Shown here one piece after another: positions 15,350 through 49,100 of a stretch of 64,000 bases of DNA (positions within the stretch are counted from its first letter, which is position 1; every line of letters starts with the position of its first letter). The notes beneath the pieces were generated by a model. The model made no database searches, was not told the origin of the DNA, and saw only the letters and a program-made list of their open reading frames with translations. A program made the position numbers and the translations under genes. Source of the stretch: Carcharhinus longimanus (lineage: Eukaryota); contig JASCQW010000130.1 of the NCBI GenBank assembly GCA_030264375.1, positions 19,204,242 through 19,268,241 of the forward strand, read 5' to 3'.

Positions 15350-15420
15350 AAGAGTTGAGGAAGTTCAGCTGGTCTGGAATCCCAAGACAGGTTCGACCAA
15401 TTACTTGGAAACTTCTTTCA
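15350..15420 (+). CDS. TBC1D22A: TBC1 domain family member 22A (Rab GAP), internal exon, 71 nt, phase 1 to 0: (E)ELRKFSWSGIPRQVRPITWKLLS
   Basis: Acceptor tttgttttaatgcag| and donor |gtaagt. The translation matches the start of the TBC domain (human A recalled as EELRRLSWSGIPKPVRPMTWKLLS). SWSGIP and WKLLS favour paralog A over B. Confidence 0.93.
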
Positions 15421-25900: not shown

Positions 25901-26633
25901 GGTGACATTAATTAGTTAGACCTTCCATTAGGAGAACAAGGGACGTTTGTTGACGATTGTTTTTACCTCTCTGCCTATGGGCGCTGATTGCTTCAATATT
26001 TGAGAAGTTGTGAAAGACCTTTATGTTGCTTGGGCTGATGAGTGACTTTTGTGTCACANNNNNNNNNNNNNNNNNNNNNNNNNNNNNNNNNNNNNNNNNN
26101 NNNNNNNNNNNNNNNNNNNNNNNNNNNNNNNNNNNNNNNNNNNNGAAAGAATTAAAACAAAACACGGGGCAAGGATTTGGAGGGACTTAGAGATAAATTT
26201 GATGTTTTGAAGGAAGGGAGCTCATGTTGATCAACGATGGGTGGGTGGCGTTAGGGCTTTGGGGGAGCTAACTTGTCTGCAAGCAGAAAGATAGTAATGG
26301 AACTCAACAAAGACAGTTACCTGCAGCAATGTCACAGAATGGAGAAATATTTTGAATCCACCACAGTTAATGTGCAAGCTACCATTCTCCCTGTTTTGGG
26401 CAGGAGGCTGGAGAATACAAAGGACTGTTGTTTTGAAACTGAGCCAGTCTGTTTTATTTAAGGGGATCTTGTGAACTTTTAAGGTTAAAATGTCTTGATC
26501 TGTTGGTTCTCCTTTCATGCTTTCCAAATGTTCATATATTTGGATCAAATTAATTTCTTGAACCTCAAAACAGTTAGATTGTGCAACCTGAAGTTCAGTT
26601 GATGTAAATGCACTCGTTCTGTTTTATTTCCAG

Positions 26634-26762
26634 GGTTACTTACCTGCCAATGCTGAAAGAAGAGAAAGCACACTACAGCGGAAACGAGCAGAGTACTTTG
26701 CTTTTATTGAACAATACTATGACTCTAGAAATGATGAACATCATCAAGACACATACAGACAG
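26634..26762 (+). CDS. TBC1D22A: TBC1D22A internal exon, 129 nt, phase 0 to 0: GYLPANAERRESTLQRKRAEYFAFIEQYYDSRNDEHHQDTYRQ
   Basis: Acceptor gttttatttccag| and donor |gtattt. It continues in frame from the previous exon (WKLLS|GYLPAN) and matches TBC1D22 family sequence. Confidence 0.95.
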
Positions 26763-26939
26763 GTATTTGGACTGAAATCTTTCCTGTACTGGCTTTGTTA
26801 CATCTCTTCCTATTGAAATATGCACCTTGTGTGTGAAGTTGAAGTCTCCACTTTTTTCATCATAAGGCCTCTGGAGTTAAAAGTTCTTGCTGTGGCAGAT
26901 GAATGTGCTAACTCATCAACAGCTTGCAATTATGCAATG

Positions 26940-27175
26940 CCTTCAATATAGGTAACATTGGTAAATTGGGAGCCAGTACTTGTCAGTGAGCCCAGCAATG
27001 ATGGGTGAACAAGACTTGGTACAGGTTTGGATATAAGCAGCTGTGTTTCGGATGAGCTCAGGATGATGAATTGGGAGGCCAGCTACGATGGTATAAATAG
27101 ACAGCCTTTGTGATTTAAGGGTATGGATTTGAAAGCTCAAGGCTAAGATTGTGAACAGTCTGCAGCAACCTGAGC
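26940..27175 (-). mobile_element. L2 LINE fragment between the TBC1D22A exon and the MIPEP exon
   Basis: ORF 26943..27140 encodes IRNTAAYIQTCTKSCSPIIAGLTDKYWLPI, matching the L2 motif QNxAAxxLxxT...ITPxLxxLHWLP. Confidence 0.75.
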
Positions 27176-28120
27176 TCTATTTTCATCCCTTCTGAGGCCC
27201 CATTCCCAACTTGGTAAAGTTGCCATTGTGTTTCCACTTGGTACTGATTTAAGATGTTTCGGGTGTACATTGATTGATAAAACAACCACATAACTCTATG
27301 GCTACGGCATAGTCTGACTTTGGAATGAATTAAACCGAACATGGAGGGATGCCTTCCAACTTTTCCTGTACCACTTGAGTTTTAGATCGTGCAGAATGTG
27401 GCTCAAGTTTCTGATGCAAACTAATGCTTGGTATAGTATCAATATGCCAGGCAAACACTTAGTAAGATACACACAACAGGCATGACAATGGGGTACGTTA
27501 TATGATTGCAAAAATGGTATTAAAATGAACATTTAAATTGTTTTGAACTATCAAATCACTGGCAATTCAATAGGCCCATCATTAAATTCAGAATGTTATC
27601 CTCATTTCCACATCCCAAACATGCACCATGCTGACTCTTCAAGTCTTGAAGCCCATATTCTATTTTGACTTTTGTTTATCTTGAAGGTTAGGTAACAAAA
27701 ATTGCATTGATGGTATGCACATCTTTCACTAGACAACTGTATGTACTTGAATTGAATAAATTATAACTGGCTTTTGTTTGTGGAATTGATTCATAACAAA
27801 TTAATTGACTCAAGTTTGCTTCTACTTTAACTTTTTTCCAGTTGCCTATTATACCACATAGTACCAGTGTTGGAGCTGTGGACAACCTCTGCATTCTAGA
27901 ACAGAAGTAATCATAAAATGATTTTAAAAACTGATACAATTAGACTCTGATGTCAATTTTATAAATTATTATCGCCATTGTTATCTGAGTTTTTGCCACA
28001 TCATCAACTGCGGTCAGCAATGTGTCCCATATATTGTCTTGTTAGGGATAATTTCTTGATGGTAGATACTATGAAGCATGCAAACAACATTGAACAAAAA
28101 TTATTTTGCATTAATTTAAG

Positions 28121-28325
28121 GACTGTCATTTTACAATCCGGGGTGGCCGATTGCTGGAGACTGGAGAGTATCAGCTTCCTGTTGTTGTGCTGATGCTCAG
28201 TCTGCCTCATCCGACAAAGTCCTCCCCAACGCTTCTAACCCCTGGGATGATGGAGAATCTCTTCCACGAAATGGGTCATGCGATGCATTCCATGTTGGGG
28301 CGAACCAGATATCAACATATAACAG
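28121..28325 (+). other. MIPEP: Isolated intact exon of mitochondrial intermediate peptidase (M3 family), 205 nt, phase 0 to 1: [68 protein letters not shown](G)
   Basis: Acceptor ttttgcattaatttaag| and donor |gtagat. Contains the HEXXH motif (HEMGH) and is near-identical to recalled vertebrate MIPEP sequence. No other MIPEP exon was found in the window. Identity is confident, but its genomic placement is uncertain. Confidence 0.9.
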
Positions 28326-29092
28326 GTAGATAATTCCCAATTCAATGGAGGATTGCCCTTCTACTTTTATCACTAAAAACAAAATTTATGCAGTAGATTT
28401 GAAATTAGTAATACTTAACATCATATTAATAATGTTAGGATTTTCTGATTTTTCAGGAAAGTTTGGAAAAATGAAGCTATCTACTAAGTTCTCTTTCAGT
28501 TCTCCAATGGCTTGTTGATTGTGGAACTTCTTCTGTATGTTTTTACTTCCTTTGACATATTCATGCAGGATGTTTTTATTGAATTACCTTAAACAGCTGG
28601 CCTCCNNNNNNNNNNNNNNNNNNNNNNNNNNNNNNNNNNNNNNNNNNNNNNNNNNNNNNNNNNNNNNNNNNNNNNNNNNNNNNNNNNNNNNNNNNNNNNN
28701 NNNNNTGCATTTCTTGGTACTGGGCTTAACACTTCATTTTAACTGAAGGCAAACTGTAATCCATTTTCTTTATCTTGTGAAATATTATGAAGAGGAAAAG
28801 TAACTGCATTATTTTAAAAGGCTGCATTAAATTGAGGAAAACAATTTGCCCAGAATGCCCTGCAGGGCACAATTTGAAAGAAGATGCCGTTTCTCTCTCT
28901 CAGTCTTAGTGGCAAACTTCAGCCAAAAAAAATTACAGAAATTTAAATATTTGCCTCATTTAATAGAGGAAGGACTTAGACTGTAAACTGGTGTTTAAAA
29001 GCATTGGTTTGTTATGGTTTTTGGGGTCAGAAAATGGAAAAATGTTTTAGACAACTTTTTCCTGAAACTTCATTGTTTTTCTAAACCATCAG

Positions 29093-29155
29093 ATTGCCAT
29101 AGATATACCTCGTATGACTCCTGAGAGTTTAATACTGCAACCAAAAGTAAAAGAG
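29093..29155 (+). CDS. TBC1D22A: TBC1D22A arginine-finger exon, variant 1, 63 nt, phase 0 to 0: IAIDIPRMTPESLILQPKVKE
   Basis: Acceptor ttctaaaccatcag| and donor |gtaaga. Carries the IxxDxxR motif and resembles human TBC1D22A IHIDIPRMSPEALILQPKVTE. It is too short to appear in the ORF track. Confidence 0.92.
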
Positions 29156-31360
29156 GTAAGAGCTTTGGGAATGAAGTAAAATACTATCTTTGCCCTGCCT
29201 CATCCACCAGTACCATAACTAAAGCTCCTGTGATTGGCTATATGGTTTGATTTTTGCAGAGCTGGGTTTCTCATTTGATCAATTCCAATTGCTTAAAATC
29301 CTTCCTGTGTATTTTCTTGAAATTGCTTCAATCAGTATTATTTGTGATGCCTTATGATTGTCATATCAACACCAATTACTTGTGTATTAATGATGAAACA
29401 TGGTTTGAGAGTCATCCACAGAATTAGTACATGACTGAGTATTGGGGCTTGATTTTTTTTATACAGGGCTTTTTTTACTCTCCGACAGCCATATGTGCCT
29501 GTAGAGGCTAAGCTATAGGTGAAAGGACAAGCACAAGAATCTATGCTTCTGCCAACACCAACTTATTTGTCAGTTAGGAAAATTGCCATTTATATTGGAA
29601 TTTGCAACAGCCCCTTCCACTTTGTCAAAGTTGCAACATCTTGTGCCACCTCATGCGTCATTGATAATTTTGGATTGCTATAAATGTCTACAACTTGACA
29701 ATTTCAATTAATGATGGACATTCCCATTGAACCGAGGGCAGAATCACAGTGCACTGGTGTGGTGTGAAGCTCAGACAAACCTCGCTGATGTTTTAGTTGT
29801 TTTCAGTGTTTTACATACATTCCTGTTCATAATCTCAGTTTGATGCTAATGGTTAGAATGCTATTTGGGGCCATGTTTGCTGACTAAACTTTTGTTGTAT
29901 TGACTCTTAAATAAAAGTAGGAAGTGAGATAAAGATTGTGACTAGCTCCCTGTTATGAATTGTGAAGGAAAAGAGAGAATTTGGGAGCTGTTTTGAGAGG
30001 TAAATCTTATCTAGTGGAGATTATCTAGGTTTTGATTTTGTTGTATTGGCACTGCAGCCACTGAAAATGTAATGATGACCCTCAGCTGTAAAGCAGTAGG
30101 AAGCTGTAGTTAAGTTGTGTCCTAGTTGCCAAGGAATGGAGAAAGCAGTTCTGGGTTTCTGCAGCATTCCAGCTATCTGTTTTCCGCAAGTGGTTGGGTC
30201 TACACAATGTGTAGAAATTGGGAGATGATCTCTTGTGCTATCAGAGGACCCTTTAAGGGGAAGAGACAGCTCATGTCAAAGGTTGGTTGATTGATGATGC
30301 AAGAGTAGTTATCTTCAAGCTGATCTTGTCCTTTTGTCACTGGTGAGCAAAGATACCACTCCTGCAGCAGAACTCTGCTTTTTAATGCAGTTGACTTGTG
30401 ACAAATGAATGGGTGGTAGCAAGTGAAAATTTAATGGTGTTTAATTAGGAAGTCAGTTTGCAAGCATAGCTTCTCAACATGACTATTGCCCTCAATTCCA
30501 ATAATTGATTTCAAGTGCTTCCTCCTATAGACATTTATCACTTAACTTCCCTTGCCGATACATGCGCCACTTTTGTCTAAACTGACTCATCTTGGCAGTT
30601 GAATAATACTCGATGCTGAAGTTCAGTATTAGTGTCAATGTGAAGTTAGAGGTTTCAGTCTTCAGAATGCAGCTATCGATCTGAGTTAGGCTAAACAAGG
30701 AAACGCTGAAAAAAGATTGCAAGTAAAACTGCCCAAAAACAGCTATTTTGCACTAAGACAGTCACATGCAAACATATGTTCTTAGGTTCTTATGTACATA
30801 CATTGCTGTTATCCATTGATCTGGTGAAGTAACTTATCCTTAGAATTTTTCGAATTGCATAACAATCACCATGATTTTTGCTGATTAAGCTATAAACTTT
30901 TGAGATAAGATTGGAGGTCAGTTTGCAAACAAGAAGCTTATATAGGATCAAAGATTGCTTAAAAATTTGTGCAGTAAATAAACTAAAAATGTGGATGGTT
31001 CTTAAGAATGTTTCATCTCTTCTAGATTTCTGTAAAACTGGAATATGGAAATGATAGTAAAACTGAATTATCTTTAAAGTATTGATATTATTGATTCACC
31101 CAGCTCTGCAAATACAGCAGGCATGGACAAAGCTAGGATTCAGAGTTGCAAAGTTGGTTCTGTTGCTAAATGTATTCAAGGAGCACTTAACCTTGAATTG
31201 TGACTCTTCAATACATTGAGTATACCTAAACAAATGGCACCGCACTCTGCAGCTGAGAAACTTGGCTTTGAGTCCCAGCTAAATGCTAGCAATCGTCTTG
31301 ACTGGCTGCACCACCAGGAATAATTTCGCCTCTGCTACTGTTTTCTTTCTTTATTTACAG

Positions 31361-31426
31361 ATTCATATTGATATTCCAAGAACTAATCCTCTTATTCCTC
31401 TCTTTCAACAAGCTTCTGTGCAAAAG
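31361..31426 (+). CDS. TBC1D22A: TBC1D22A arginine-finger exon, variant 2, 66 nt, phase 0 to 0: IHIDIPRTNPLIPLFQQASVQK
   Basis: Acceptor ttttctttctttatttacag| and donor |gtgaga. Carries the IxxDxxR motif and resembles TBC1D22B IHIDIPRTNPLIPLFQQPLVQE and yeast Gyp1. Visible within ORF 31283..31477. Confidence 0.92.
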
Positions 31427-32599
31427 GTGAGAGAACTAATAAATGATGGGCCAGCACTGCTTGAATGGTGTAACTAAAAACAAAACAGAAACGCTGATTT
31501 CAATGTATAATTCACTCAGTTTTAGCTGGATTATAAGAAGTTGATGCCTGCATGATAATTTGGCAATTATTGTTTACATGGAGTTCCATGGGGAAAGCTG
31601 AATCATGTTAACCTGCCATGTGCAGTTTCACCTTTGTTAGAGAATCAAGCAGATTTTCATGCACTTGTTCATGCACTGCTGGTCTATCAAGCTGCCTGAT
31701 GCACAATGTCAACTTAAATGAGCATTCTGTAATAAAGTTGCAAGAGTCTTAATGCATCATTGTTTCTAACTACCACTTGACCTCGTTGAACGAAATGACC
31801 GAGTTTAAGCTAATGTTTTTGGCTTGCATCACACAACTAATTTGATACTGACATTCAGTAGTTTTGCAGTTGAAAGTAAATCAGTATCTGTTTTTACGCT
31901 TAGTCTCTCACTTGTTTTTCTTTGAGTTTTCTTTCTATTGGCGGCTAATGATCATGTGAAGAAAATGTGCAGTGAGACGGTGGCGAAGCTGTTCTGTTGA
32001 AAATTTTCTTTTTTGTGGTGCTGCATCTGAAAGTTCTTTCAATCTGCCTTTTTACTGCGGCAGTAGGCTAATTAGAATGATTTCACTTGGAAATAAATCT
32101 GTATTCCAGTAACATTTCAGAATTAACCTGAGCAGTGGTTCTAATTAATTGTCTTTCTGCACCGAGCAAAGCTGAGGATTGAGGGAACTTGTCTCCCGAT
32201 ACTTTAATGAGACCAAGGAAAGATCCAAGTTGAAGTAATTGTGCATCTTTGTGTGAAGTTCATTTGGTATACTTGAAAATTTTTGGCTTGTTTTTGTACC
32301 ACTTAAAAGTGCTGCATTTGAAAAAGGATAACTTTTAACTGTTGTAATTTGCAACTGCTGAATGCTTGACCCTTTGTCATGATACTTGTATAATTGTTAA
32401 TTTTTATCCACCACTTCCTTTGATGCCCTTGTCTGTCGGAAAACATGTATTCTCATCATCTGGATTAGTCCCATTACTGTAGATCCCATGTTTTTCTCAC
32501 ACCCAAAGGACACAGACTTAACAAAATCTGGCACATTTTAGCCATTTGTCAGATCTGACTGAAATGCTAGAAGTGCTTATTTTGTACTCATGCATGGAA

Positions 32600-32790
32600 G
32601 GAGAATGTTGCTGGTGAAGCCATTATTTATTGCCCATTCCTTAATTGCCATTAAGAAGGTGACGGTGAACTGCCACCTTGAACTGCTGCAGTTAACTTGG
32701 TGTTACACACCCACAGTTGGGTAGGATTTTGATCCAGTGACAATGAAGGAATGATAAAGGTTTCCAAATCAAGATGGTGTGCGACTTGGT
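32600..32790 (-). mobile_element. LINE 3' end fragment
   Basis: atttattgcccattccttaattgccattaagaaggtgacggtg, same family as 10440 and 42590. Confidence 0.7.
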
Positions 32791-33079
32791 GGTGGGCCAC
32801 TATTGGGCTGCCTCCTTTTCTGCTAAGGCCGCCCACAGCTGTAGGATTGCCCCAGATAGGAAAGGTAATCCAGGGCATCATCTTTCATGAAATTCCTGAC
32901 ACTGGTCCTGGAAAACATTTCCTCCCAGATTTGTGTCCACTCTTTCTATAGCATTATCTGAGTCTTCCCAATTTCTGCCATGTTGAAATGTCCTTAAGCT
33001 AAATCACATCTGCCATCTCCTGTGATCTTTTCAAGCTCTGCAAACTTATCTGATGCTTCTACAGTTCTTGTGCGAGAGA

Positions 33080-33960
33080 AGCCATAGATCAATTTGGCTA
33101 ATATCTATCTGTTGTTGGGAAGTTGCTAGAGTCTGTAACAACTTCTCTGAATAACTAACTTGACCATTTTTGGCCGACCAGAGAAAGCCAGTATGGATTG
33201 TGATAAGGTCCGTTATGCTTGATGAGTCTGATTGGTTTTTTATTTCAATAAGTGAATGAGATAGTGGACAGGGGAATGTCTATGCATTGTTATTTGTATG
33301 GACTTACAGAGGAAGTGTTAGCTAAAACAGAATTGAATGTAAATTATTGACATAGTTATTTATTAACAACATAGAAGATGGAATAGAAAGCCCAAATGCA
33401 AATTTGTCAATGATACAAATGCCTTAAGCAGTGTAGGTTGAAACATAAAGTTAGAAAGAGATATTAATACATTAAGCAAATGGATTAGAGTGTATTTCAA
33501 TGTGAGGTCATCCACTTCAGATGGGATAGATCAGAAAATTTTCTAAATGATAAGCTGGAAACACTGGAGATCCAAAGAGATGAGAGGTCCGTATGCATAT
33601 ACCATTAAAACATCATGAACTGGTATGGGAATTAACCAAAAATATGATTGGGATACTGATGTTTACATAAAAGGTGAGAACACAGGGGGATAGAAACCAT
33701 TCAGCCTTAGGTGGAACATACTTGGAGCACTGCATTCCATTCTGGCCAGCAGACTGTAAGAAGATTCATTTGGAAAGAAATAGATTTGAGTTTCTCAAAA
33801 TGAGACACAGCTTTCTAGGGTTAAAGTACAAGAAAAGGTTCCTGAGAATTTAAAGCTTAAGGGATGATTTTGATCAATGGTTTCAAGCTTTAAGGGGAAC
33901 AGATAGGGTAGATAGAAGCTGTTTCAGCTGGCTGGGTATCGAGGACTACGGAACAAAACT
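33080..33960 (+). mobile_element. Highly decayed CR1 LINE RT
   Basis: SVVGKLLES, ESQYGL, YMDLQ, KFVNDT and LEHCIPFW remnants. Confidence 0.7.
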
Positions 33961-36159
33961 TTTGTGTCTTTAAAAAAAAGTCTTTTCTGGGGTCAGTGAT
34001 AGATAATTCCACACATTCTACTTCCATTTGTTGCTTCAGTGGCGCAGTGTTAGTTAAGCTCCAGGTGGCTAAAATTCACTGCTAGATCCTGCCTGAGATA
34101 CTCCACAACATCGTTGTCGGGTAGTTGTTTTTCAAGTTGCTGAGCTTGAAGCCTTGATCCACTGTTGCACCAAGATTTTAGAAAGGGTGACTGAAAACAT
34201 CCCATCACCTGGTGGTTGTGGATCAGAAATGGATATTACACTGCACCTTAGCTGGATTGGGAGATGGGGGCAGTCAAGGGGAAGAGGAGGTTGATGGACG
34301 TTTGCAATAATAGGATGATTGTGGAGCGAGATTCCACTGTGGACAGCTGGGGGTNNNNNNNNNNNNNNNNNNNNNNNNNNNNNNNNNNNNNNNNNNNNNN
34401 NNNNNNNNNNNNNNNNNNNNNNNNNNNNNNNNNNNNNNNNNNNNNNNNNNNNNNGTGGAGCAGAAGCAACTTTTGAATCCACTTGAAAAGTCAGATCAAA
34501 TAACTGAATAAACTAATATAATCACAACAATTCATTAAATTGACCATAAAATCAGGCCATTTAGCCCATATCTTTGCAAGATACTTGATCTGGATTTTCT
34601 ACAATAACCCCATTGCACTTTTTCTAAATTTCTATCATTCCACGTAATATCATTCTTTTAAATGATATCATTGTATAAACAGAACGTGAATTACAATTTC
34701 TTTCAGCCCCTACNNNNNNNNNNAGAAATCCCTCGTCAATGTTTATTCCTCTTGGCAATGATTTGATGTCTCTAAATTTATTGTGTATTGACGTATTGAG
34801 AGATTGTCTTCACTTCACACTTAATCTGTGCAGTTTATTTTTCTTATTACAATGCACAGACTGGCATTCTAATTACACAAAACGACTTTCAGGAAGATCA
34901 AGAGCTGTAATGAATAACAAATCACTGCTGACCACTAACTTGTTTTCTGGCTTCCCTCGTAACTGGTAACAGTTGTTAGCTTGGCTTGGGTACTACCCCT
35001 TTGCTTTTCAAAACTTATCCCACCCTATAAAATTCCCCCCTCAACCCCACAGTTGTTGCAAATCAGCATCTCATCTCATCTCATCTCCCACCTCCCTTTT
35101 CTCCTTCAAATTCTTAAAACTATTGACTGTCGAATCCATGCCCAACTTTGTCAGAACTCTTGATTGGATAGATTCAAACAAATGAAAAACCCTAATCTAA
35201 TCTTAAATGCCAAGCTTTGTGATTTGGAATAATATCCTATCTGTAAAGGTGACCATCGAGCTATTTGCTTAGATTAAAAATCCAACAAGTTTACCAATGT
35301 CTTGGGAAGGAAAACTGATGCCCTCACCTGATCTGGTCTATTTGTTAAAATCATTTTTTTTGTCAGTGTGTTATGTAAGCAAGCAGTGATGGAGAGTGAC
35401 AATTTTTGAATTGGAGATTCCAATATTTAAAACATTGTTTTGGCTGGTGCATTTCAATCTGCTAAGACACACTGGTGGGACTCAGTTGAGGGTTTTTCAT
35501 AGGTCATTTAGTAATTCAAGGGTCAGTAGACATCAGTTAGACAGAGACTTAGTCAGGAGCAAGTGAAGCAGAAGGTGGCTGGTTCCGTTCATGTTAGCTT
35601 GAGAAGTTTGAAGCCCAGAGAAGCCCCAGTAGCTGTCACATTGCCCTGTATATTTGGGGCAGGGAAAACTCCACTGGGGGCTAAGACGATGGTTGAAGGT
35701 TACTGGCTCCATGTTGCTGGGCAGTTGGAGCAAAGGAACATCCTTGAGTACTGGTGTTCTCAATGGTTATAAAGCTGGAACTGTGTTGAATGTAACCTTG
35801 TGAATTGTGTGGGATGCGATCTCAGAAGAAGAGATTGAACAACTGGGAGGCAAACAGTCATTGAAGCAATCTGAATTGGAGAGCCTTTTAAGGGAAATAG
35901 AGGCCAGATCTTAGAAAGAGAGAAGCTGAAATCCCTCATGAGGGAAAAACAGAGTTTGAAATTCTTTTTTGTCATGCTGTGGGGTGGGGAGGGGTCACAA
36001 AAAATTGTGGGCTCTATTTTAATTGTCTGCCATCTGATATGCAGTTTTGTGCTGTATTCAACTGGAGTTTACCTGTTAATTCATGTTTACCTCATGTTAA
36101 TTCTGGATTAAAAAAAAATAATTATTGAGAGCTGTGCATTGCTGGCGAGGCCAGCATTT

Positions 36160-38230
36160 ATGATCAGAGACAGGATTGTCTTAGGAATAAACAATCCCAC
36201 TGTGAGAACATGTCTGCTTTCAGGAAAGCTATTGACACATACAGTAGTTCTGAGATGGTTAATCATCAGCTGCAGAGTATGGATGTGGTAACTGATGAGG
36301 CTCTGCACTCTGCTCAGGCCTTCCAAGTGGAGAAAAGGAAGAAATATTTACAGGAGGGCAAACAGAATGACCAAGCCCAGGGTACATCGTCATTGCTGTA
36401 TCCAGTGCATTTTGCCATTGTAATGCTTCAGCTCAAATATGCCAACACTGGCGTCTCTGTCCTTGAGATCTACTATCCCATTTGCAGCCTCCCTTTCTTC
36501 TCAAGTCCAAGACCATGTGTTGCCTCACAAATCCACACTCATTTTTTCACACTTTTATTTCAATCTCATCAAATATTCTATCCCATCATAGTACTGAAAT
36601 GGCTTTGGTGTGTGTTACACATGAGATCTGACATAATGGCAATGCAGTCAGCTATACCTAAATCCTTCTCAATCTGTCGTGAGCCTTAGACACAGCTGAC
36701 CATATCTACATCTTCCAACACCTCTCCATCCATCATCACCCTGACAATGTCCTGACTGAATACTAGTACTCGAGAACTAACCACTGCAAATCAAGTTGTT
36801 CAAGATCTGCCACATCTTTGGCAGCTGCCCGACAAAGAAGGAAGTTGCCCAGGTGTTTAGTCTGCAAAAGAGCAGAACAAACACAGTCTGGCCATTATTG
36901 CACCATTATCCTCCTCCCAATCATCAGCAAAGTGATGGAGGGTGTCATTGAAAGTTCTGTCAAGCAACATTTACTCACCAGTAACCTACTCATTGCTCAG
37001 TTGGAATTCCACAATTTCAACTTTGCATTGCCTCAAACATGGATGGAAGGGAGCTCAATTCTAGAGGTGAAGTGAGGGGTAATACTATTGAGCATCAGAG
37101 GAGGTGATTCTGTCTTGCTGGAGCCATCCATTACCTGGTACTTGATGAGCATGATGTTATTAGCACAACACCCAAGTTTTGATGTTGTTCAGGTCTTGCT
37201 GCATGGAGGCAAGGATTTCTTCATTATAAGAAATTGCAGTGGAACTGAACACTTCGCACTCACATCCCTACTTGTGACCAAATGACGGAGGAAAGATCGT
37301 CTGAAAATCGTGAGCCTGAAAGTGTTGCTGTGAGGAACTCCTGTAATGATGCTGTGATGTGAGATGATGGACCATAGCTGCAAGAACCACAGCTGTTTTC
37401 CTTGGTGATGTGGTATAATTGCAGCCAATGGGGCTTTATCCTGATCAGTTTGACTTGTGCTCCTTGGTGCCACACTCAGTCGAATATGACCTTTGTGCGA
37501 AGGGCAATCACACTTCCCTCACCTCTGGACATAAGATTTTGTGCAATATTATGGCTTCATTTATTTATTAGTCACAAGTAAGGCTTATGTTAACACTGCA
37601 ACAAAGTTACTGTGAAATTCCCCTAGTCGCCACAGTCCAGTACCTGTTCAGGTCAATGCACCTAATCGGCATGTCTTTGAGAATATGGGGGGAAACCAGA
37701 ACACCTCGAGGAAACCCGGGGTCAACGTGCAGACTCCGCACAGACAATGACCCAAACTGGGAATCAAACCCGGGTCCCTGGCACTTTGAAGCATCAGTGC
37801 TAACCACTATGCTACCATATGAAGGCTATATTGAGGTTTGGGGTCTAGTAATCCTTGGGGAGTGCAAATTGAGCACTAGGGAGCAGGCTGTTGGTAAGTG
37901 CTGCGTCAGGTGTTGGTGGGAACATAGGAGGAGGCAGAGATGGATCATTCAGTACTTTTGGCTAGAAACGATTGTAAACACTGAAATGTCCTCTCTTTTT
38001 GCACTCGCATTCTGGCCTCTTGCCTTCCAGCACTCAGAATGGAAATATTTATGGAGTCTCCTCTTTGTTAATTTGGTCATGGAATCACTTGGCTCTGTTT
38101 GTAGAATGCCACATTCATTATTTAACATTGACATAATCTGTGTTTATAGCTTCACAAAGTTGACATCTCATTTTCAGGTATGCCTGGCACTGCTCTCTGC
38201 ATACTCTTAGATTTATTATTCCACCAGGCG
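36160..38230. mobile_element. Patchwork of LINE fragments (+ strand about 36790-37075; - strand about 37090-37550 and 37820-38230)
   Basis: ORF 36818..37075 encodes HYCTIILLPIISKVMEGVIESSVKQHLLTSNLL. The adjacent minus-strand piece encodes DIRLSVAPR/GVPxS-type RT remnants. Confidence 0.65.
37558..37816 (-). mobile_element. V-SINE with alternative tail (same subfamily as 12925-13213)
   Basis: ttatttattagtcacaagtaaggctt...ccctggcactttgaagcatcagtgctaaccact. Confidence 0.85.
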
Positions 38231-40044
38231 TGGTCATTGAGGTTGATGGTTTCGAGTTGTTCTCCTTTGTAGCCTTGACACCTCAGTACATCTGTAATGT
38301 CGCCGAGTTCAACAAATCCCCACTCTGCCATCAGAATTCTCTTTCCATGATCTTTGCTTCCCCATCGTTTGGCTCTGAACTCTGCAATTCCCTACTTCAC
38401 ATTTAAAATCTAACCGAGGAATTGTGTTTTTGATGACCCCCAGAATACCTTACTTGATTTGACAAAAATTTTACCCAGACATGACCTCCATGAAGTAAAT
38501 TAGGATGTTTTTTGACAGGAGAGATACATTATAAGTACAACAAGTTGCAAGTGCTGGAGGTAGATAGGCATTGCTATGCTCTTGTAGGTGCTTCCCTTTA
38601 CTCATCTGATTCATGGACATGGAATCAGTTTGCACATGTATTCTAATGACACCTAGCCCTCTCCTGCCCTACCACCTGTCTTTCTCCTGTAACTGTATTG
38701 TCAGACTGATTGTCTGACATTCAGTCTTGGCTGAGGCACAGTTCCCTCCAGCTAAATATTATTTGACTGAAACTATTAATTATTTTAGACAAAGATGAAC
38801 AGGGTAACATTTATTATTATTTCAGTTTCTATAATTATATTCACAGCGATATAATTCTGGAACACAGGAAACAATACAACACAATCCCTGGACTAAATAT
38901 TTTCTTCTGTCTCAAACTAGTTGGCACAGACTTAAATGATTGTTCAGGTGTAAGAAGAAATGCTCTGGTCTTGCTTTGAGGAAGAGCAAAGGGGCCCTTC
39001 CAGCTTGAGCCAATTTGTGTTTTTAAATCAAATACACCAGAACTGATGATTCGTCTCACTGCTGTTTTCTCAAACTTGTTTAAAAATTGCTTTCCATGTT
39101 TGCCAACATAACAAAACTTCTAAAATGAATTCATTTGCTGTGAGGCACTTTGGGACCTCCTTAAAAAGTGCCCTTGTTAAAGCAAGTGTTTTGACGGGAA
39201 CTGCCATATCAGCCTCCCAGACTTGGTTCCTTTATTTTTTTATTTGCGAGGCAAGATGCCAAAATTCGATTTCTGACTCTATCTTAGCTCTCATTGCTCA
39301 CTGATTGACCAGTAGGGTTATTGATTAAGCTGACTACTGCCTCACCCCTCATTACAGTCCAGTAGTTCCATCTCATGCGAACGTGCCAATGTTGCAGAGG
39401 AAACTTGTAAACATGACAAATTTTACTTTTTTCTTTCTTTTTTAAACCATTTCCCTGGTAAATTTATCTTACAAATTTATTTGAAATAGTTTTTATTGCC
39501 TTGGATCCATTTTACATGTAAAATTCTCGGCCAGCTGGAACCTATCTGATTGACTCCCATTGTAAAGTATGTTTATTGTTTGTGGTTTTACTGTTCATGA
39601 GCTTTCATGGGAATGTAACCCCTGTGAATGACAGGACTTTATGGTTTAACTAATGTATTATATAGCACCTTAAATGCTGATTAAACACAAGGTACCCACC
39701 ATATAGGTTGGATCAATCTTGACTGATTGAAGTGACAACTTTGGCTATCTTTGTGAAGATTAATATTCTAACAAATTGGTGAGCCAAAATAATTAAAATT
39801 TGCAAAATGTGACACATTATTATGCAGCAATGACATGACCTGTTCAAGGTTTGGGGTAGGGGGAGAGCTTGAAATTTTCCACCATGTATTTCTTGATGAG
39901 CTTGTCGAGTGAAATTTGGACATAAAATTTCCTTAAAGTGTCTTTGAAATTGGTTACCAACTTTTTTGGTCCAACTAATTAACCTCAATTAATATTTTAT
40001 GGATATAATATTCAAAACTTAATTTGTTTTATGTTCTTCCTCAA

Positions 40045-40420
40045 TAAAGCCTGCGCCGATCACGCTTACCTCTCGAGACCAACCACTTATATCCCTGTAT
40101 TCCCTGTCTGCTTATGTGTCTATCCAGATAAGTCTTAAATGGCGCTAACGTGTCTGCCTGAATCACCTCACTTGGCACTGCATTCCAGGCCCCCACCACC
40201 CTCTGTGTGGGGGAAAAAAAAACTTCACCCACACATCTCTACTGAACCTTTTCCTCTCTTATCTTGTACTTGAGCCCCCTTGTAATTGTTATTTCTGCCC
40301 TGGAAGCTTTCAACTGTCCACCCTATCCATACCCTTCATAATTTTATAGATGTCTATCAGGTCACCCCTCAGCCTCTGTCTTTCCAGGGGGAACAATCCC
40401 AGTTTATTCAATCTCTCTTC
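40045..40420 (-). mobile_element. CR1 LINE 3' end
   Basis: ORF 40041..40232 encodes TQRVVGAWNAVPSEVIQADTLAPFKTYLDRH, with [14 protein letters not shown] upstream. Confidence 0.88.
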
Positions 40421-41129
40421 TGTTCTGTATTTGGGACAAAAAGGTGTTCCTCATCTCCCAACCCTTGTCACTGTGAATGCAGCACTGAAGATTATCATTT
40501 TGCCTATCATACTTGTGCCAGCTCTTCAAAAGTGCTCTTTGTTAGTTCCACTCCTTTGCTCTTTCTCCATTGCACTACAAAGTTATTATTTCTGCTTCTA
40601 TTACCCTTTCTGGTAGTGCCATGTGCCCTCTTGAAGGACTTGATATTGTGTGGTGTTCAGAAAAGGCCATTATGCTGAGCCGTGTTAGTATATTTTCCTT
40701 GCTTACAAATTAAGGATCGGCGTGCCTTTTCAACATCCTCATCAATGTCCTGTGCTATCTCAAGGTCTGCACATTCCACACCAGTCTCTTTTCTTGCACC
40801 TCCTTTAAAATGTACCATTTTGTTCATATTGCCTTTCATCATTTTTCTTATCAAAATGGATTGCTGCGCATTCTTTGGATTTCAACAGTTGATGTGGCTT
40901 CCTGAAGTCTGTTATTATCCTCTTCACTGTTGGCAGCTTTGTCTTTTACTATTTCGTGCAAGCTCCCCCCATCTTTGAGGATAGGGATGTTCATGGAACT
41001 GCCTCTGTGTTAGTTTTTTTGTCCATAAATTGCAAAGAAATGTTAATGGACTGCTGAACTTTGATCTGATCTGTTGGCTGTGGGATCACTTAGCTGGTCC
41101 TATGATTTAGCTGCGTTGGCTTGACACCT

Positions 41130-41990
41130 CATTTATAGATGCACATGGTGCTGATCCTGGCATGTGCTTCTACATGAATTCAGCCTGGGTTTGTTCCCTG
41201 GCTTGATGCAAATGATGAAGGATACAATGGCTATGAGATTGTTGGAATGCAATTCTACTGCTGTTTGGCCACAGTACCTCGTGGGTGCTAAGTTTTGAGC
41301 TGCTAGATCTGCTATGAATCTGTCCATTTAGCTGGGAGTCGGGCCATTCAGCACTATAAATGTTGTCCTCAGCATACGCATCTGCACAAGAATTTTATAG
41401 TTGTCACTCCTAATGTTGTCATGGACAGATGCTCTGCAGCAGGTGAATTGGTGAGGATAAGGTCATGCAGATTTTTTTCCTTGTCAGTGATCTCACCACC
41501 TGCTGCAGGCCCAGTCTGGCTGATTTGGTCAGTTCAGTCAGAGTGTTGCTGATGAGCCAATCTTGGCAATGGACATTAACAGCATATTCTGTGCCCTTGC
41601 TACCCTCAGCATTTGTTCTAGGTCTTGTTCAGCATAGCGGAGCAATGATTCATTCGTTGAAGGTTGGTTGGCAGAGAAAATCAGCAGGATCTTTCTTCTC
41701 CCACGTTTGAATTGATACCTTGACTCGTTATGGGGTATGGAGTCAATGTTGTGCACGCCCAGAGCCAGTCTCTCCTGCCTGTATGCCACTATACAGCCAC
41801 ATCTAGTTGGTCTATCCTGCTGGTTGGACAGGACATCCGTAGTGATAGTGATGGAATAGTGTGAGACGTTGCCTATCGGTATGATTCTGAATCTGATCAA
41901 GCATTTCCTTGACCAGTCTGTGGACAAAGCTCCCAATTTTTGTGCAAGTTCCCACATGTTTGTTTGGAAGATTGTGCAAAGTTGTTAGAA
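41130..41990 (-). mobile_element. LINE endonuclease-region fragment
   Basis: ORF 41538..41957 encodes QQDRPTRCGCIVAYRQERLALGVHNIDS, an APE-domain RxDR..GGGV remnant. Confidence 0.7.
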
Positions 41991-42589
41991 GAGCCGAGAT
42001 CACTGGTGATTGATCCATCCATTTCATTTTTTTCAGTGGTAATTGAATCAGAAGTCGTCAAATCTTGTACCCGCCAAGAGAAGCAGTTCAAGTCACACTT
42101 GAACTACACTCTGGAAGGTGAAATGCCAAATTCAAATGCACACCATGAATGGTTAATTTTAACTCTGCAATGTGTAAATGCTGTTCTTGGCTTATCATTG
42201 TGGGGCCAGGGTAACACTGCCATTTTTTTAATACTGTCAAAATTCCAAATCCTTGGTATGGAAAGAGTTAAGTGGTTTGTAAATTTTCCGATTGAACCTT
42301 AAACATCTGCGTTCTGAGTTTCCCAGGTGGCGCAAGATAAATAACTAATGTTTGAAACAATAAATCTGTGTGAGTGAAATAATGAGATTAATACGAAACG
42401 TTTCTGGTTGGACCATAATTTATCTTCTTAATTTATTCATGAGAATATAAATCTGCAGTAGCAATTTGTTCACTGTGTGAGCTCTGCGTTTGTTTAAGAA
42501 TGACAGGAACCCAACTAAAATCTTAAATTAAAACAGCAAATGATAGAAATACACAACAGCTCCATCAGAACGTGAAAAGTCGGGAGGTC

Positions 42590-42860
42590 AGCACTATTAA
42601 CCACCTGGAAGGATAAGGCAGCAATTGCAGGGGAATGCCGCCTCCTGCAAGTTTCTCTCAAACTCGCACACCATCCTGACTTGGAAATATATTGTCATTC
42701 TCTCATTGTCACTGGGTCAGAATCCTGGAGCTCCCTTGTGAGCAATACTGTGGATGGATCTGCACGCCACACTGCAGTTCAAGGAGGTGCTTCATGGCTT
42801 GGGATGGGAATAAGTGCTGCACTTGGTGGTGATGCCCACGTTCTATGAACAAATAAAATA
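42590..42860 (+). mobile_element. LINE 3' end
   Basis: TILTWKYIVILSLSLGQNPG-type remnant and the tail gggatgggaataagtgctg...tgaacaaataaaa. Confidence 0.72.
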
Positions 42861-43324
42861 TTTCCACTGCTTAAACAGGTCATGTTTCAATTGGGCAATC
42901 ATTTAAATTAAGCAAAGAGCACAAATAATTTTCTGCTGCCAAGATTGCCAATTACAAAGTTGCCGTTCATGTGTTTTTGAGCGTTAGCACTTTTTTTGGC
43001 AAATAAGGTTTCTTGTTAAGATGCGATTATCTTATCTACCTTAATTACCTAGAACTGGTGGTGGGTTACAGCCGCAGGACTCAGCACTGAGTAATAAAGT
43101 TGTTCAGGGAATGGTTTGCATCTTCATGTTGTAATGAATTTGCCCACAATCCCCTCCAAGTGAAAAGTGATTTATTGATGATCCAAGCTCGCCTTGAAAG
43201 AGCAATTTGCATTTTCAGGTATCGTGGAATCTTGTAAAGCTTAATGGTTTGTACAGACAAAAATTTTGAATGTGACTAGAGCTGACCAGTCTGACTAAAA
43301 TCATCCAGTGCATATAGCAGGAAA

Positions 43325-44240
43325 GCCACAGATCACAATCAGTAAGGTTAGGCAACAGCTCCTCCATGATCATTCTCAACATTGGTGCACCACATGGTTG
43401 TGTCCTCAGCCCCCAATGACTGTGTGGCCAAATTCCCCTCCGACTCTTTGAAGTTTGCTGATAACACCATCGTAGTGCGCCGGATTTCAAAAAATGACGA
43501 GACGGAGTACAGGAATGACGTTGAGAATTTGGTGAACACGTGCAATGACAATCTCTCCCTCGATGTGAACAAAACGGAGAAGATAATCATCGANNNNNNN
43601 NNNNNNNNNNNNNNNNNNNNNNNNNNNNNNNNNNNNNNNNNNNNNNNNNNNNNNNNNNNNNNNNNNNNNNNNNNNNNNNNNNNNNNNNNNNNNNNNNNNN
43701 NNNNNNNNNNNNNNNNNCTACAACTTTCTCCAACTTTGACTGATGTACCATAGAAAGCATTCTTTCTGGCTGTATCACAGCTTGGTATGGCTCCTGCTCT
43801 GTCCAAGTCCACAAGGAACTACAAAAGGTCTTGAATGTAGCCCAATCCATCACACAAACCAGCTTCCCATCCACTGACTCACTGACTCTGTCTGCACTTC
43901 CCGCTGCCTCAGCAAAGCAGCCGACATAATTAAGGACCCCATGCACCCTGGACATTCACTCTTCCACTTTCTTCCTTTGGGACAAAGATACAAAAGTCTG
44001 AAGTCACATACCAACGGACTCAAGAACAGCTTCTTTCCTGCTGCTGTCAGACTTTTGAATGGACTTACCTTGTGTTAAGTTGATCTTTCTCTACACTCTC
44101 TAGCTATGACAAACGCTACATTCTGCACTCCCTTGTTTCCTTCTCTAAGAATGGTATGATTTGTCTACATAGCATGCAAGAAACAATAGCTTCCATTGTA
44201 TCCTAATTCATGTGGCAGTAATAAATCAAATCAAAATCAA
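43325..44240 (+). mobile_element. Rex1/Babar LINE (RT to 3' UTR), interrupted by a gap
   Basis: GAPHGCVLSP, KFADNT, NLSLDVNKTEKII, ESILSGCITAWYG and NSFFPAAVRLLN motifs. Tail aataaatcaaatcaaaatc. Confidence 0.9.
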
Positions 44241-45452
44241 ATTGGTATGAACATACCTGCTATGAGTGGATGTTGTACTTGTGTGCACATATATCTGTAT
44301 AAGTCAATGCATCTGTCTGCCTATATGTACATTGTTTGTTAGCATCTTTTCCACCAACATGTCTCCTTTCATTCCTCCACACAATCCTTTGTCAAACTCC
44401 CTTTACCATCCAGCACCCTGCTTTAGTTTAAGATGCTTAACTGAATGAATCTTCCAATTGAAAGAAAAAGTGATAGCCACCACAGAATTTTGCTGGAGAG
44501 GAGGATCTAATGTAACAAAAAAAAACCTGTTAAATTAGTCTCAATCAGTCAAAGTTGCTGTTGTGGCTACAGGGTATGTTTGGGAAATGGGGACCTGTGA
44601 ATTAGGTCATGTAGCAGGCAATTACCGGTTTAAAAAATATGCAATTGGGAGCAGAGTTAGAGTTGGATAACAGGAGAAGAAAAAAAACCTAAGCCCTGAA
44701 TTTGTGGGAGTTTGCAATCTAATAGTGGACCCCATTAGACCTTTTGTTTCACCCTTGAGCACAAAAGTGATGTTTTTGCCGACCTATCGGGGCAGCGTAA
44801 ATTGGCCGGCAAATTGTGATGATGTGCTATTTGTGAGATAACTCTTATCTCTTATCGTAGGTTGCTGGCCTGTTTGCATTCCATCATTTTTTTCAAATTC
44901 TGGGCCATATTTGTGGGCAAATTGTGCACATTTTTAAAAACATACTGTTCAGCAGTGAGGGAACAGCACTTGTTTCTCATCACTGAGAGCTACCCACAGA
45001 CCTTTTGTAGGACTTTGAGCAGCAACATGGAACTGTCAGGCATCTGGATCAGCCTGTGCCTTAAAGAGGAGACCTGGTGTGCTTGTGAACAGGGTAGGCA
45101 TTCTCACAAAGAGAACCAGATTCTAAACCAGGATATATAAACCAGATTTAATTCATTGTAAAACAGAAAACAAAATACAGAGGGAAAGGAAGATGATAAT
45201 GCGAGAGAAATGAAAATCCAAGAATAAATAAAAGCAATTTTTTTTTGTACATATCCAACATTTCCAGTTCTGAAGACATGTTCCTTTGAACTGAAAAAAG
45301 ATGTCCAGTGTGAGAAGTATTTGTTTGTCAGTAATATGACTTACAAATTGCAAATTTACTTGTGCGTGAATGTGTCAGTCCTTACTGTTCTGCCTTGTTT
45401 TGTGTGTCGGTGATGGGTAAGTGCAACAATTTCATCCCCTTACATTGATTTC

Positions 45453-45522
45453 ATAAGAACATAAGAAATAGGAGCAGGAGTAGGCCATCTGGCCCTTCGA
45501 GCCTGCCCCGCCATTCAATAAG
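45453..45522 (-). mobile_element. CR1 LINE 3' tail next to a gap
   Basis: cataagaacataagaaataggagcaggagtaggccatctggccc. Confidence 0.8.
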
Positions 45523-46058
45523 NNNNNNNNNNNNNNNNNNNNNNNNNNNNNNNNNNNNNNNNNNNNNNNNNNNNNNNNNNNNNNNNNNNNNNNNNNNNNN
45601 NNNNNNNNNNNNNNNNNNNNNNAAGGACAGTGTCAATACCCTTCACCCCACTATCCCCAATCACTACTACGTTCCTTTTCTCACCAACCTCACCTGCCTT
45701 GTCCTCTTCCTGAATCCATCAAACAGTATTAAAGCAAAGACTTTGGGGGAGCAATTTGCTGATCTTGGTCAGTTGTAGACTCCAAAGGTTCATGTCCAAT
45801 TTAGTCCGTAATAACGGTGAGCCTGGGCGATCTCACCAATATTGCCAGTGCAAATGCAGGCCCAAAGATTGAGGATAAAATAAATATACAATACTAAGTG
45901 TAACAGGTTAAATCAAATTAATTTGCCCACATAACTATATTCATAAGAATTGGATGTAAAGTGCTTTGGAATATCCAGGGATCATGAAATGAGGCATGTA
46001 AATGCAAATTCTTTCAATTGCACCAGAACCCCACCTAGTGGTCAGAGAATTGCAAATA

Positions 46059-46200
46059 CAGGCAGTCCTCAACTTTATGCCGTTTGAGTTGCGACGAGCT
46101 CGCACTGAATGACATTTATAAACTGGCATCTTGTTTAGCTTTATAATGCTGGTTTTGACTTTACGACGTCATGCCAGCAAACACGTTCAAACGTTCATAC
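46059..46200. mobile_element. Tigger/pogo-type DNA transposon end
   Basis: TA|caggcagtcctcaacttta, a Tigger-like TIR after a TA target, followed by internal gactttacgac sub-repeats. Confidence 0.6.
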
Positions 46201-47364
46201 GTGCACTTCTGTGTTCTGTGCTGCCCATCGTTTTTAAAATATATATTTGGTTGTTGATACTGGATGAGCCCAGGGAAGTGGAGAGACCTTCCCCTCAATA
46301 TCTGGCCCCCAAAATCCTTCAGCCCGACGGAACTGGAGGCCAAAAACCATTTTCTGAAAAATGATTTTGGCGTATCACACCTGAACGGTTCACTGCGTGG
46401 AGCCAGGCTCTGCCAATGGTGAACAGCCCCAAAAGCAAATCGCCTTTTAGCAGAGGTCTGAGTGCATTGGGAGGAATGTCTCAAACCTGCAGGATATGAG
46501 ATCACCTTTTGCCAATGAAAAAGTGGTCTCGTTCCGCTGACAGTTTTCTCAATGATTACAATCCTGCCTGTGTTCTGACACCTTTTGCCTGAGAACCACG
46601 TTTCTGATTCATGTTGTGCTCATCACATGGCCCCTGACACCCTTCATTGGAGAATAAGATAAACAAGACCCTTATTATCTGATTAATAATCTCCAAAACA
46701 GACTAAAACATTAACCAAAATCTCAAATGTAAATTCGTGAAATCAAGTCAGAAAGGGGAAATCGTTAACAAGCAAATCGGGTGTGGGCCTTGGTTCATGA
46801 ACCAATTCCCCAATTATAACATTGTTCCTTTGGAAAATTGATTCTCACCTGAGACATATCGACTTGAGACACGGTTTCCAGAAACCAATTGCATCTTAGG
46901 TCCAAGAACTGCCTGCATGAAACTGGCTGGATTTTGCTGCACAAATAATGCTGTGGCTAACAATACTCATTATGAATTCTGTGGAATCAAACAGCAACTT
47001 CTGTCCATTTGCAATTGAAACACATTGAATGCAGAAAGTTCCTCCATTAACTTCCCATAAAGCACATCTCACTGTCTGATGCACCATTCAAATACACTGA
47101 ATGAGGTGAGATTGCTGCATTTAATCCATAACTACCAATTAANNNNNNNNNNNNNNNNTAGAACTTGTCCATTATAGTGTAAGTATTGTTTTAATGGCAA
47201 ATTCAGATTAATTACTGCTAAGTAACACTGACACTGAACATTTGCAAGTGTGAAGTCACATTTCTTTCAATTTTGATTCTTGTTAATTTTAAAAATGCAT
47301 TTTTTCTAGTTCTCTGATCTCTCTTTCAACCCCATGTTTCTTTCTTTCATTTTCACTGTCTGAT

Positions 47365-48290
47365 TTCACAGAATCACAGATTTGTTACAGTTCAGAAGGA
47401 TTTGCACTGGCTCTCCTAATGACTAATTTACCTCGAGATTTCCTCTCGCAGCCTCTTTCGCGTTATCCTGCAAATTCTTCCTTTTCAGATAACAACCTAA
47501 CTCCCTTTCGAAAATCTCAATTTAATCTGCCTCCACCATACTCTCCAACAGTGCATTCGAGATGCCAATCAACTGTTAGAATGATGGAATTCAGAACTTC
47601 TCCAGTGCAGAAGGAAGCCATTTGGCTCATCAAACCTGCACGGCAACAATCCCACCCTATCCTGCAGCCTGATGTTTACCCTGTTAATCTCACTGACACT
47701 AAGGGGCAATTTAGCATAGCCAATCCACCTAATCCACACACCTTTGGAGTGTGGAGGAAGCTGGGGGACTCAGAGAAAACATGTGCAACATGGGGAGAAC
47801 ATGCAAACTCCATGCAGTCACCTAACGCTAGAAAAGAACCTGGATCCCTGATGCTGAGAGGCAGCAGTGCTAACCACTGTGCCACTGTGTCAGCCCTCTT
47901 CTTGGGTGAAAAAAGTTTTTCCCTCCTATCAATTTAGCTTATTTTGCCATTACTTTAAATCTGTGCCCTCTCGTGTTTGTGGGAACAGTTTTTCCATACT
48001 TGCTCTGTCCTGACACTCGTGAATTTGAAGACCTGTTTCAAATCTCCCCTCATTTTTTTTCTTCAAGCAAAACAGTCCTAACTTCTCTATTCTGTTTTCC
48101 TAATCTGAAATTCCTAACCCCTGGAGCCATTCTCATGATTCTTTTCTGCACTCTGTCCAATGCCTTCATTTCGTTCCAAAGCACTGTGCCCACAACTAGA
48201 CACACTACTGCTGCTGAGGCCAAGCTTATACAGGCCTTAGACAAGTTTAACGTAACCTCCTTGCTCTTGTACTCTATGCCCCTATTAATT
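47365..48290 (-). mobile_element. CR1 LINE 3' region with a nested HE1-type SINE (about 47575-47890)
   Basis: cacagaatcacag tail; ORF 48050..48244 encodes MKALDRVQKRIMRMAPG. The SINE head at 47850-47890 splits the LINE. Confidence 0.85.
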
Positions 48291-48985
48291 TAGTTTCTGT
48301 AGAAGATGCTGCACTTTCTGGATGTCTGTCTGCCTGGCAGGAGTTTGCATTTTAAAGCCCCTAGAGTGCTGTGGATAAGAGCAAGAGTAATGAATAGCTG
48401 GCATCACTGATTCAGTGCTCAGCGCAGCGTTCTTTGTTAGCCAACTTTTTAATTTTGGAACAGTGATTATAAATGCATATGTTTCCATGTTGTGTTTGCA
48501 AAGATCATGATAACAGGAACTAAGTTTTGGCAATGGGAAATGTGTGCCATTTGCATGATTTTTAGTATTTAGATATTTTACTTTGTTCTGTATCAGCAGT
48601 GTTGCTTTTACAGTATTGGACAGGCAAGTTAAATCATAAGACATCTGATAGTTTTGATCACAAAAATGAAAATATATCTCTTTAAAAGGCTAGTTATAAT
48701 GTATCCTTGAAGTAGCAAGCAACTCGAAGCACAGAATCAAATCCAACACTGATTTAGTTTTGCCCTGATTTATTAATGCAAGCTGATGAACTTCCCCATA
48801 GGCCAGTGCTTTTGAGGTGACAAAGAAATGGGATTGGCTTTGAAATTGTTATTGTTCAGGTACAGTGATATGTGCACATTGCCCTTGAGACACAATTTGT
48901 GTTGCCATTCATTTTCAAAAATTGAATATATCTGCTACACCTGAACGAATTTCCTTCATTGTAGTTTCTTAAAATTATTTTCCAG

Positions 48986-49100
48986 ATCTTTGAACGCATT
49001 CTTTTCATTTGGGCGATAAGGCACCCAGCCAGTGGATATGTTCAAGGGATAAATGACCTTGTTACGCCTTTCTTTGTAGTCTTCGTTTTTGAATACATTG
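48986..49100 (+). CDS. TBC1D22A: TBC1D22A internal exon, 115 nt, phase 0 to 1: IFERILFIWAIRHPASGYVQGINDLVTPFFVVFVFEYI (glutamine finger YxQ)
   Basis: Acceptor ttattttccag| and donor |gtaagt. Contains the GYVQG TBC motif and is in frame with either arginine-finger exon. Confidence 0.96.

Follow-up and report, generated by a model that had tools for sequence, protein, structure and literature searches.

The DNA analysed here (the window) is a stretch of 64 kb from the genome of the shark Carcharhinus longimanus, and the gene to which it belongs is TBC1D22A, which encodes a trafficking regulator, a Rab-GAP of the Gyp1 type, and extends over approximately 356 kb of contig C130. Two TBC1D22 loci can be distinguished in this genome: (i) the gene on C130; and (ii) one paralogue, TBC1D22B, on contig C142, whose exon reads VVFLSE, as in the TBC1D22B structure 6D0S. 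Since the exons of the gene on C130 match named TBC1D22A proteins (for the upstream exon, identity with those of several sharks reaches 100%) and a separate TBC1D22B lies on C142, the gene of the window is identified as TBC1D22A. The features discussed below are collected in Table 1.

Table 1. Features of the TBC1D22A locus (positions in the 64-kb window)
Feature	Position	Strand	Remarks
TBC1D22A coding exon, start of the TBC domain, ends ...RPITWKLLS	15350..15420	+	tblastn with the Mustelus X1 protein model; AG/GT ends
TBC1D22A exon preceding A and B (129 nt, phase 0-0), last residues ...QDTYRQ	26634..26762	+	Spliced contigs in 8/8 runs
MIPEP-like M3 peptidase exon, HEMGH motif, foreign to TBC1D22A	28121..28325	+	Contig piece 26145-28605; single-copy; AG/GT ends
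Exon A, 63 nt, IAIDIPRMTPESLILQPKVKE	29093..29155	+	TBC1D22A form kept in amniotes; IxxDxxR arginine codon 29111-29113
Exon B, 66 nt, IHIDIPRTNPLIPLFQQASVQK	31361..31426	+	TBC1D22B/Gyp1-like; IxxDxxR arginine codon 31379-31381
ACTAAT word, QKI-like, downstream of exon B	31435	+	Chance about 0.12 per 300 nt
TGCATG word, RBFOX-like, downstream of exon B	31549	+	Chance about 0.08 per 300 nt
Downstream TBC1D22A exon, IFERIL...GYVQG...	48986..49100	+	YxQ glutamine finger, codon 49043-49045

A sequence-only reading of the window had described two homologous exons, here called A and B, as alternative carriers of the arginine finger of this protein. Both exons are sound: they have AG/GT ends, are phase 0-0, contain no stops, lie in the ungapped stretch 28706-34354 and encode the peptides given in that reading. 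They follow an exon that encodes the helix leading into the arginine finger. Spliced RNA was followed by mapping assembled contigs on 26600-31500, which was done for 8 of 10 runs presumed to be RNA (3 coded organisms, 4 studies); the RNA nature of the runs is shown by their spliced joints, and expression levels and tissue bias are unreadable from contigs of this kind. The 3' end of the exon at 15350..15420 is matched by loose ends of RNA preceding 26634, and the first 28-30 bases of the exon at 48986..49100 correspond to loose ends found after exon A or exon B.

The upstream flank called for two corrections: the exon before A spans 26634-26762, and the upstream intron (2330 nt) is unreliable, as it contains a gap of 100 N and an exon that belongs to a different gene; exons A and B are unaffected by this. 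This foreign exon, which we take to be part of MIPEP, is spliced in the RNA contigs of 8/8 runs to sequence reading ...DFFHRSDKPH and TRCPTDFAEV..., and the exons that flank it are found on contig C98, where two N gaps lie between them. Most likely, it was misplaced into the TBC1D22A intron as part of a chimeric assembly piece. Two further observations concern repeats: (i) the 38 bases at 26982-27019 are matched by unrelated contigs from four runs at approximately 87% identity and are probably a repeat remnant; and (ii) residues 1-41 of the Mustelus X1 protein model match dozens of scattered sites in the genome, many of them with stops, and are probably repeat-derived.

TBC domains have an arginine finger, IxxDxxR, and a glutamine finger, YxQ, as described in the accessible part of PMC4230784. 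Both motifs are present in the shark gene, IxxDxxR in each of exons A and B and YxQ in 48986-49100, and the residues D78, R81, Y135 and Q137 are invariant in an alignment of 134 sequences. The two exons are adjacent, of the same phase, similar in length (63 and 66 nt) and homologous, that is, they have the characteristics of tandem homologous exons. Their nucleotide alignment scores 32, versus a mean of 6.8 (sd 6.3) after shuffling, and 1 of 2000 shuffles scored as high. Exon A was found as a single copy in the genome, and no third copy of the exon was found in 26763-48985, a span with N gaps in which the best other score was 32, versus 103 and 113 for the two exons. The pair is real and arose by an ancient tandem duplication of the exon that encodes the catalytic arginine finger.

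Compared by sequence only, the shark protein resembles the solved structures 2QFZ, 6D0S, 1FKM and 2G77, with which it shares the TBC domain and both finger motifs (E values of 4e-169 to 2QFZ and 2e-177 to 6D0S). The assignment of exon A to the human TBC1D22A form and of exon B to the TBC1D22B/yeast Gyp1 form was borne out, as among solved structures the former matches only PDB 2QFZ and the latter matches 6D0S and 1FKM/2G77. But while the four solved relatives found hold one finger segment each, the fish gene encodes two and can place both of them in one chain.

Of the proposed splice junctions, the following were recovered in the RNA contigs. Junction 26762-29093, from the upstream exon to exon A, is present in 8/8 runs; junction 29155-48986, in which exon A continues to the downstream exon within one contig and exon B is skipped, is present in 7/8; and junction 29155-31361, which joins A to B without mismatches and then leads on to 48986, is present in 1/8 (run X1). 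The contig of run X1 that contains A+B is 122 nt long, with a depth of 13.1 versus 20.7 for the shared contig (about 60%). Since it agrees exactly, both in length and in starting point, with a bubble arm at k=31, the A-only and A+B forms coexist in run X1. The junction from the upstream exon to exon B was seen in 0/8 runs, which, given that assembled contigs drop rare forms, means only that this junction is no main form in these runs; neither did the assembled contigs of the 8 runs, which lose rare forms, contain a joint that skips both exons. Both exons are spliced into mRNA, A in 8/8 runs and B in 1/8 runs as well as in zebrafish records. As for each exon alone with both flanks, A is so found in 7/8 runs and B in 0/8, though B alone is present in four shark models, in AAH85412.1 and in full-length Logan proteins.

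Downstream of exon B, the two short words at 31435..31554 offer a weak lead as putative splicing enhancers, each being common enough to occur by chance. We take ACTAAT to be a QKI-like and TGCATG an RBFOX-like enhancer word; exon inclusion in muscle or nerve would be in keeping with them. Separately, an internal GT at 29147 in exon A would yield an 18-residue form ending in ...LQPK, and models of this type exist in Chiloscyllium, Hemiscyllium and Varanus.

Database records were selected by the upstream exon alone, with 120 matches listed of 964 (4 genomic fragments were dropped), and the rows counted are isoform clusters, not independent species. The sequence-only reading had left it as a question whether predicted isoforms of other vertebrates show the exon pair, and they do: fish models exist with A only, with B only, with A+B and with neither exon. 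Among the rows listed, the 43 of cartilaginous fishes comprise A+B in 21, A in 14, B in 4 and skip-both in 4, and the 73 of ray-finned fishes comprise A in 32, B in 22, A+B in 13, skip-both in 4 and other forms in 2; A+B forms number 34 among the 120. All four forms (A, B, A+B and skip-both) are annotated in the spotted gar, as models X1-X4 in an order not implied here, and the models of Mustelus include A, B and A+B. For zebrafish, NP_999964.1/AAS92640.1, a curated RefSeq form, is A+B and AAH85412.1 is B-only; judging by accession type, we take these records to be cDNA-based. Logan proteins of at least 500 residues on contigs of 1.8-3.5 kb must derive from spliced RNA. In two skate-like clusters and one shorter singleton, 18 contigs encode such proteins with A and 8 encode them with A+B, counts that are biased because the clusters were hand-picked. 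The reading that one gene can encode either an A-type or a B-type finger segment is supported.

In-frame models without any finger exon, which would lack the catalytic arginine, account for 8 of the 120 fish rows listed and for 4 amniote rows. As skip-both models also occur in amniotes, some of the forms may be splicing noise.

The proposal that the two exons are mutually exclusive is not supported. They are co-included in run X1 and in zebrafish NP_999964.1/AAS92640.1, and in cartilaginous fishes A+B is the commonest model that contains B. Exons A and B behave as two frame-neutral cassettes, not as a strict either/or pair. It is quite improbable that they form a true mutually exclusive pair whose A+B product is a leak or the result of incompletely regulated splicing: such pairs usually have similar lengths, the same phase and homology, B-only is common in ray-finned models (more so than A+B), and among the Logan-only entries of the zebrafish cluster, 7 contigs are B-only and 1 is A-only (the cluster having been picked by a B-type representative), but the A+B arm of run X1 reaches about 60% of the depth of the shared contig, the curated zebrafish RefSeq form is itself A+B, and a frameshift or a too-short intron is ruled out as the mechanism of exclusion, as both exon lengths are multiples of three and the intron between them measures 2205 nt.

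Nor is exon B an assembly artefact, a piece of TBC1D22B placed into TBC1D22A, an idea that a gappy assembly with another gene's exon misplaced in the neighbouring intron might invite and that we hold to be next to impossible. It is refuted by (i) the RNA that joins exon A to exon B without mismatches; (ii) the separate and different B exon that the paralogue has on C142 (58/66 nt alike); and (iii) the same A+B order across fishes.

Both exons are conserved in chimaera, sharks, rays, bichir, sturgeon, bowfin, gar and teleosts, and the pair has been kept for more than 400 million years in fishes. Exon B is the more uniform of the two in fishes, with 4 variants among 59 segments and a mean identity of 97%, versus 19 variants among 79 segments and 87% for exon A; between sharks and teleosts, one residue of the 22 in exon B differs. 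When the bowfin A+B segment served as query, 983 matches were obtained, of which the 120 listed are all from fishes, chimaera to teleosts, with no names of lobe-finned fishes or tetrapods among them. In amniote TBC1D22A, exon B was found in 0/80 new named representatives retrieved with a bird upstream exon (the same search returned it in 23/35 fish rows) and in 0/107 listed members of nine amniote clusters (752 members in all). From these protein records, in which the taxa sampled are fishes and amniotes, it is likely that exon B was lost before the amniote ancestor.

This near-invariance bears on the idea that the A, B and A+B products are nearly equivalent and that B has no effect on Rab choice and hence could be lost in amniotes. 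The IxxDxxR motif is kept in both segments, amniote records are without B, eukaryote homologues differ widely in the residues that follow the arginine, and RabGAPs are described as promiscuous in the accessible passages of PMC12631847. Nevertheless, a dispensable exon would not stay near-invariant from sharks to teleosts, and we find near-equivalence very doubtful.

Regarding the origin of the pair, its distribution suggests that the exon was duplicated before cartilaginous and bony fishes separated. In shark TBC1D22B, the B-type exon lies behind a 461-nt ungapped intron that follows its upstream exon, and no A-like exon above noise was found in that intron or in the downstream intron, which has 8 gaps. 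Gene conversion was considered as a cause of the likeness of the two B exons and is unsupported (synonymous change in 6/20 codons of exon B versus 35/70 of the flanking exons, p = 0.13). The claim that the B type is ancestral was upheld in part. The segment length and the C-terminal half agree with it, as the spacing of B to the next helix is found in 109/118 parsable representatives of eukaryote homologues from a wide search (149 new rows) and A is one residue shorter; the A-like RM[SC]P start of several invertebrates speaks against it. In horseshoe crab and dragonfly, RMSP precedes a B-like L.[AP]LFQQ, and a cnidarian has RTNP. Because of these mixed patterns, each of the two fish exons appears to keep part of the pattern present outside vertebrates.

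The simplest history would be one duplication within the 22A line before jawed vertebrates diversified. The invertebrate RM[SC]P starts are a hint of another, namely an older exon pair from which A may later have been lost in 22B. A quick tree built from 117 homologues, the finger segment being omitted, most rows unnamed and the single TBC1D22B row excluded by length, has an animal part without resolution. The data fit a duplication within the 22A line with late loss of B and also a pre-existing pair that was partitioned. The earlier proposal that the mammalian difference between 22A and 22B at this segment goes back to exon duplication followed by loss is supported by the fact that amniote TBC1D22A proteins carry only A.

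The human paralogues give an indication of what the two segments may do. According to the passages available from one study, human TBC1D22B is pulled down with RAB1B-GTPgammaS and binding of TBC1D22A is negligible, ER-to-Golgi transport is sped by silencing 22B and not 22A, and the two proteins differ in their effects on the growth of tumour spheroids (PMC12631847). TBC1D22A blocks ER export of GPCRs, an effect in which Rab33 is probably not the intermediary (PMC6639060, consulted as excerpts), and yeast Gyp1 acts on Ypt1, the Rab1 homologue (PMC13090580, likewise). Human 22A and 22B also differ outside the segment and in their N-termini, as seen by comparing their sequences. From the RAB1B binding of human 22B versus 22A, we infer that Rab binding would change between the A and B isoforms. 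It is a reasonable inference that TBC1D22A of fishes would gain a Rab1-competent site through exon B, and that the A+B form would be a hybrid or damped state.

The structure of the A+B form was predicted with AF2. For the TBC domain of the shark A+B protein, with the 134-sequence alignment, the mean pLDDT is 90 and the pTM is 0.88, and only residues 83-101, that is, the second half of A and the finger of B, fall below a pLDDT of 50; the arginine of A follows helix 66-78, and the second half of B leads into the next helix. The register of this model is biased, since the aligner put most single-segment homologues on the first half of A and the second half of B, and the model therefore shows that the insert can loop out, not that it does. 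A shallow alignment of 30 sequences gave a pLDDT of 36.

The predicted loop lies directly after the catalytic arginine, and it might be thought that in cartilaginous fishes exon B is mainly an insert that damps GAP activity, the loop blocking the Rab and the A+B product being inactive or effector-like. The predominance of A+B over B-only in the rows of these fishes (21 to 4) agrees with this, as does the drift of the finger half of B in two rays, Narcine and Pristis. We consider it unlikely, as exon B retains I, D and R at the motif positions in all 155 segments tallied, B-only models exist in four shark rows, and the fold is predicted to be intact. In the two rays, the drifted half reads IHIDISRANP (Narcine) and IHIDIARTNP (Pristis), the second half is unchanged, and the B rows seen there are all A+B.

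The reading that we favour, and consider probable, is that shark TBC1D22A contains two tandem homologous, frame-neutral arginine-finger exons, used as separate cassettes, which likely tune Rab binding or GAP performance. Four products are predicted: (i) A-only would have a site of the human 22A type; (ii) B-only would have a site of the 22B/Gyp1 type, which would restore RAB1 binding; (iii) A+B would keep the TBC fold, with the arginine of A in place, some 20 residues looped out and the C-terminal half of B as a cap, a hybrid third state; and (iv) skip-both would be without an arginine finger. Exon B probably disappeared on the way to amniotes.

The pair belongs to a known class. Like the tandem homologous exons described in the consulted parts of three studies (PMC8373072, PMC5740500, PMC4494069), its members are adjacent, similar in length and equal in phase, undergo alternative splicing and predate the divergence of fishes and tetrapods. 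Of 236 human cases of tandem exon duplication, over 90% go back to fish, as stated in the text available from PMC8373072. Unlike catalogued mutually exclusive exons, those of TBC1D22A are also co-included, can both be skipped and apparently no longer exist as a pair in amniotes, and because of this human-centred catalogues miss them. The accessible text of PMC4494069 counts 11 events in which, once a gene had been duplicated, its splice isoforms were divided among the paralogues. What amniotes have in the end, A in TBC1D22A and a B-type exon in TBC1D22B, resembles such a separation; the case differs from it in that both exons persist in TBC1D22A of fishes and shark TBC1D22B yielded no A.

Automatic annotation already includes the isoforms, and no paper describing the exon pair was found in full-text searches, which covered titles and abstract openings and lay mostly outside subscription journals. 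As for the catalogues, TBC1D22 has 0 matches in the supplements of Martinez Gomez 2021 (PMC8373072), in which the control CACNA1C was found, in the 10 files of Hatje 2017 (PMC5740500), among them the tables of 1,400 rows and two large files excepted, of which a large table could list the pair as an unvalidated candidate, and in the searchable supplements of Abascal 2015 (PMC4494069) and Zea 2021, file 1 of each excepted. TBC1D likewise has 0 matches in one file of Martinez Gomez 2022 (searched without a control) and in the main text of the ASPRING preprint.

In practical terms, zebrafish tbc1d22a can serve as a clean model of its human counterpart TBC1D22A only if the isoform is specified. More generally, a duplicate exon with a catalytic residue that is alternatively spliced, kept in fishes and apparently dropped in amniotes, represents a class hidden from human-centred catalogues. 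Fishes hold a natural swap, two forms of a single gene whose sole difference is the 21-22 residues including the catalytic arginine, and this makes the determinant of the Rab choice of a TBC GAP directly testable; the passages available from PMC12631847 name no residues behind the difference between human 22A and 22B. Tentatively, and as a possibility that we would not put at even chances, the short exon may be what switches Rab selectivity in the TBC1D22 family: fishes would flip 22A by tissue among a 22A-type form, a RAB1-competent 22B-type form and a double-finger hybrid, amniotes would have frozen the choice into two genes, and the pair may predate the gene duplication. If this is true, swapping 21-22 residues would convert human 22A into a RAB1B GAP.
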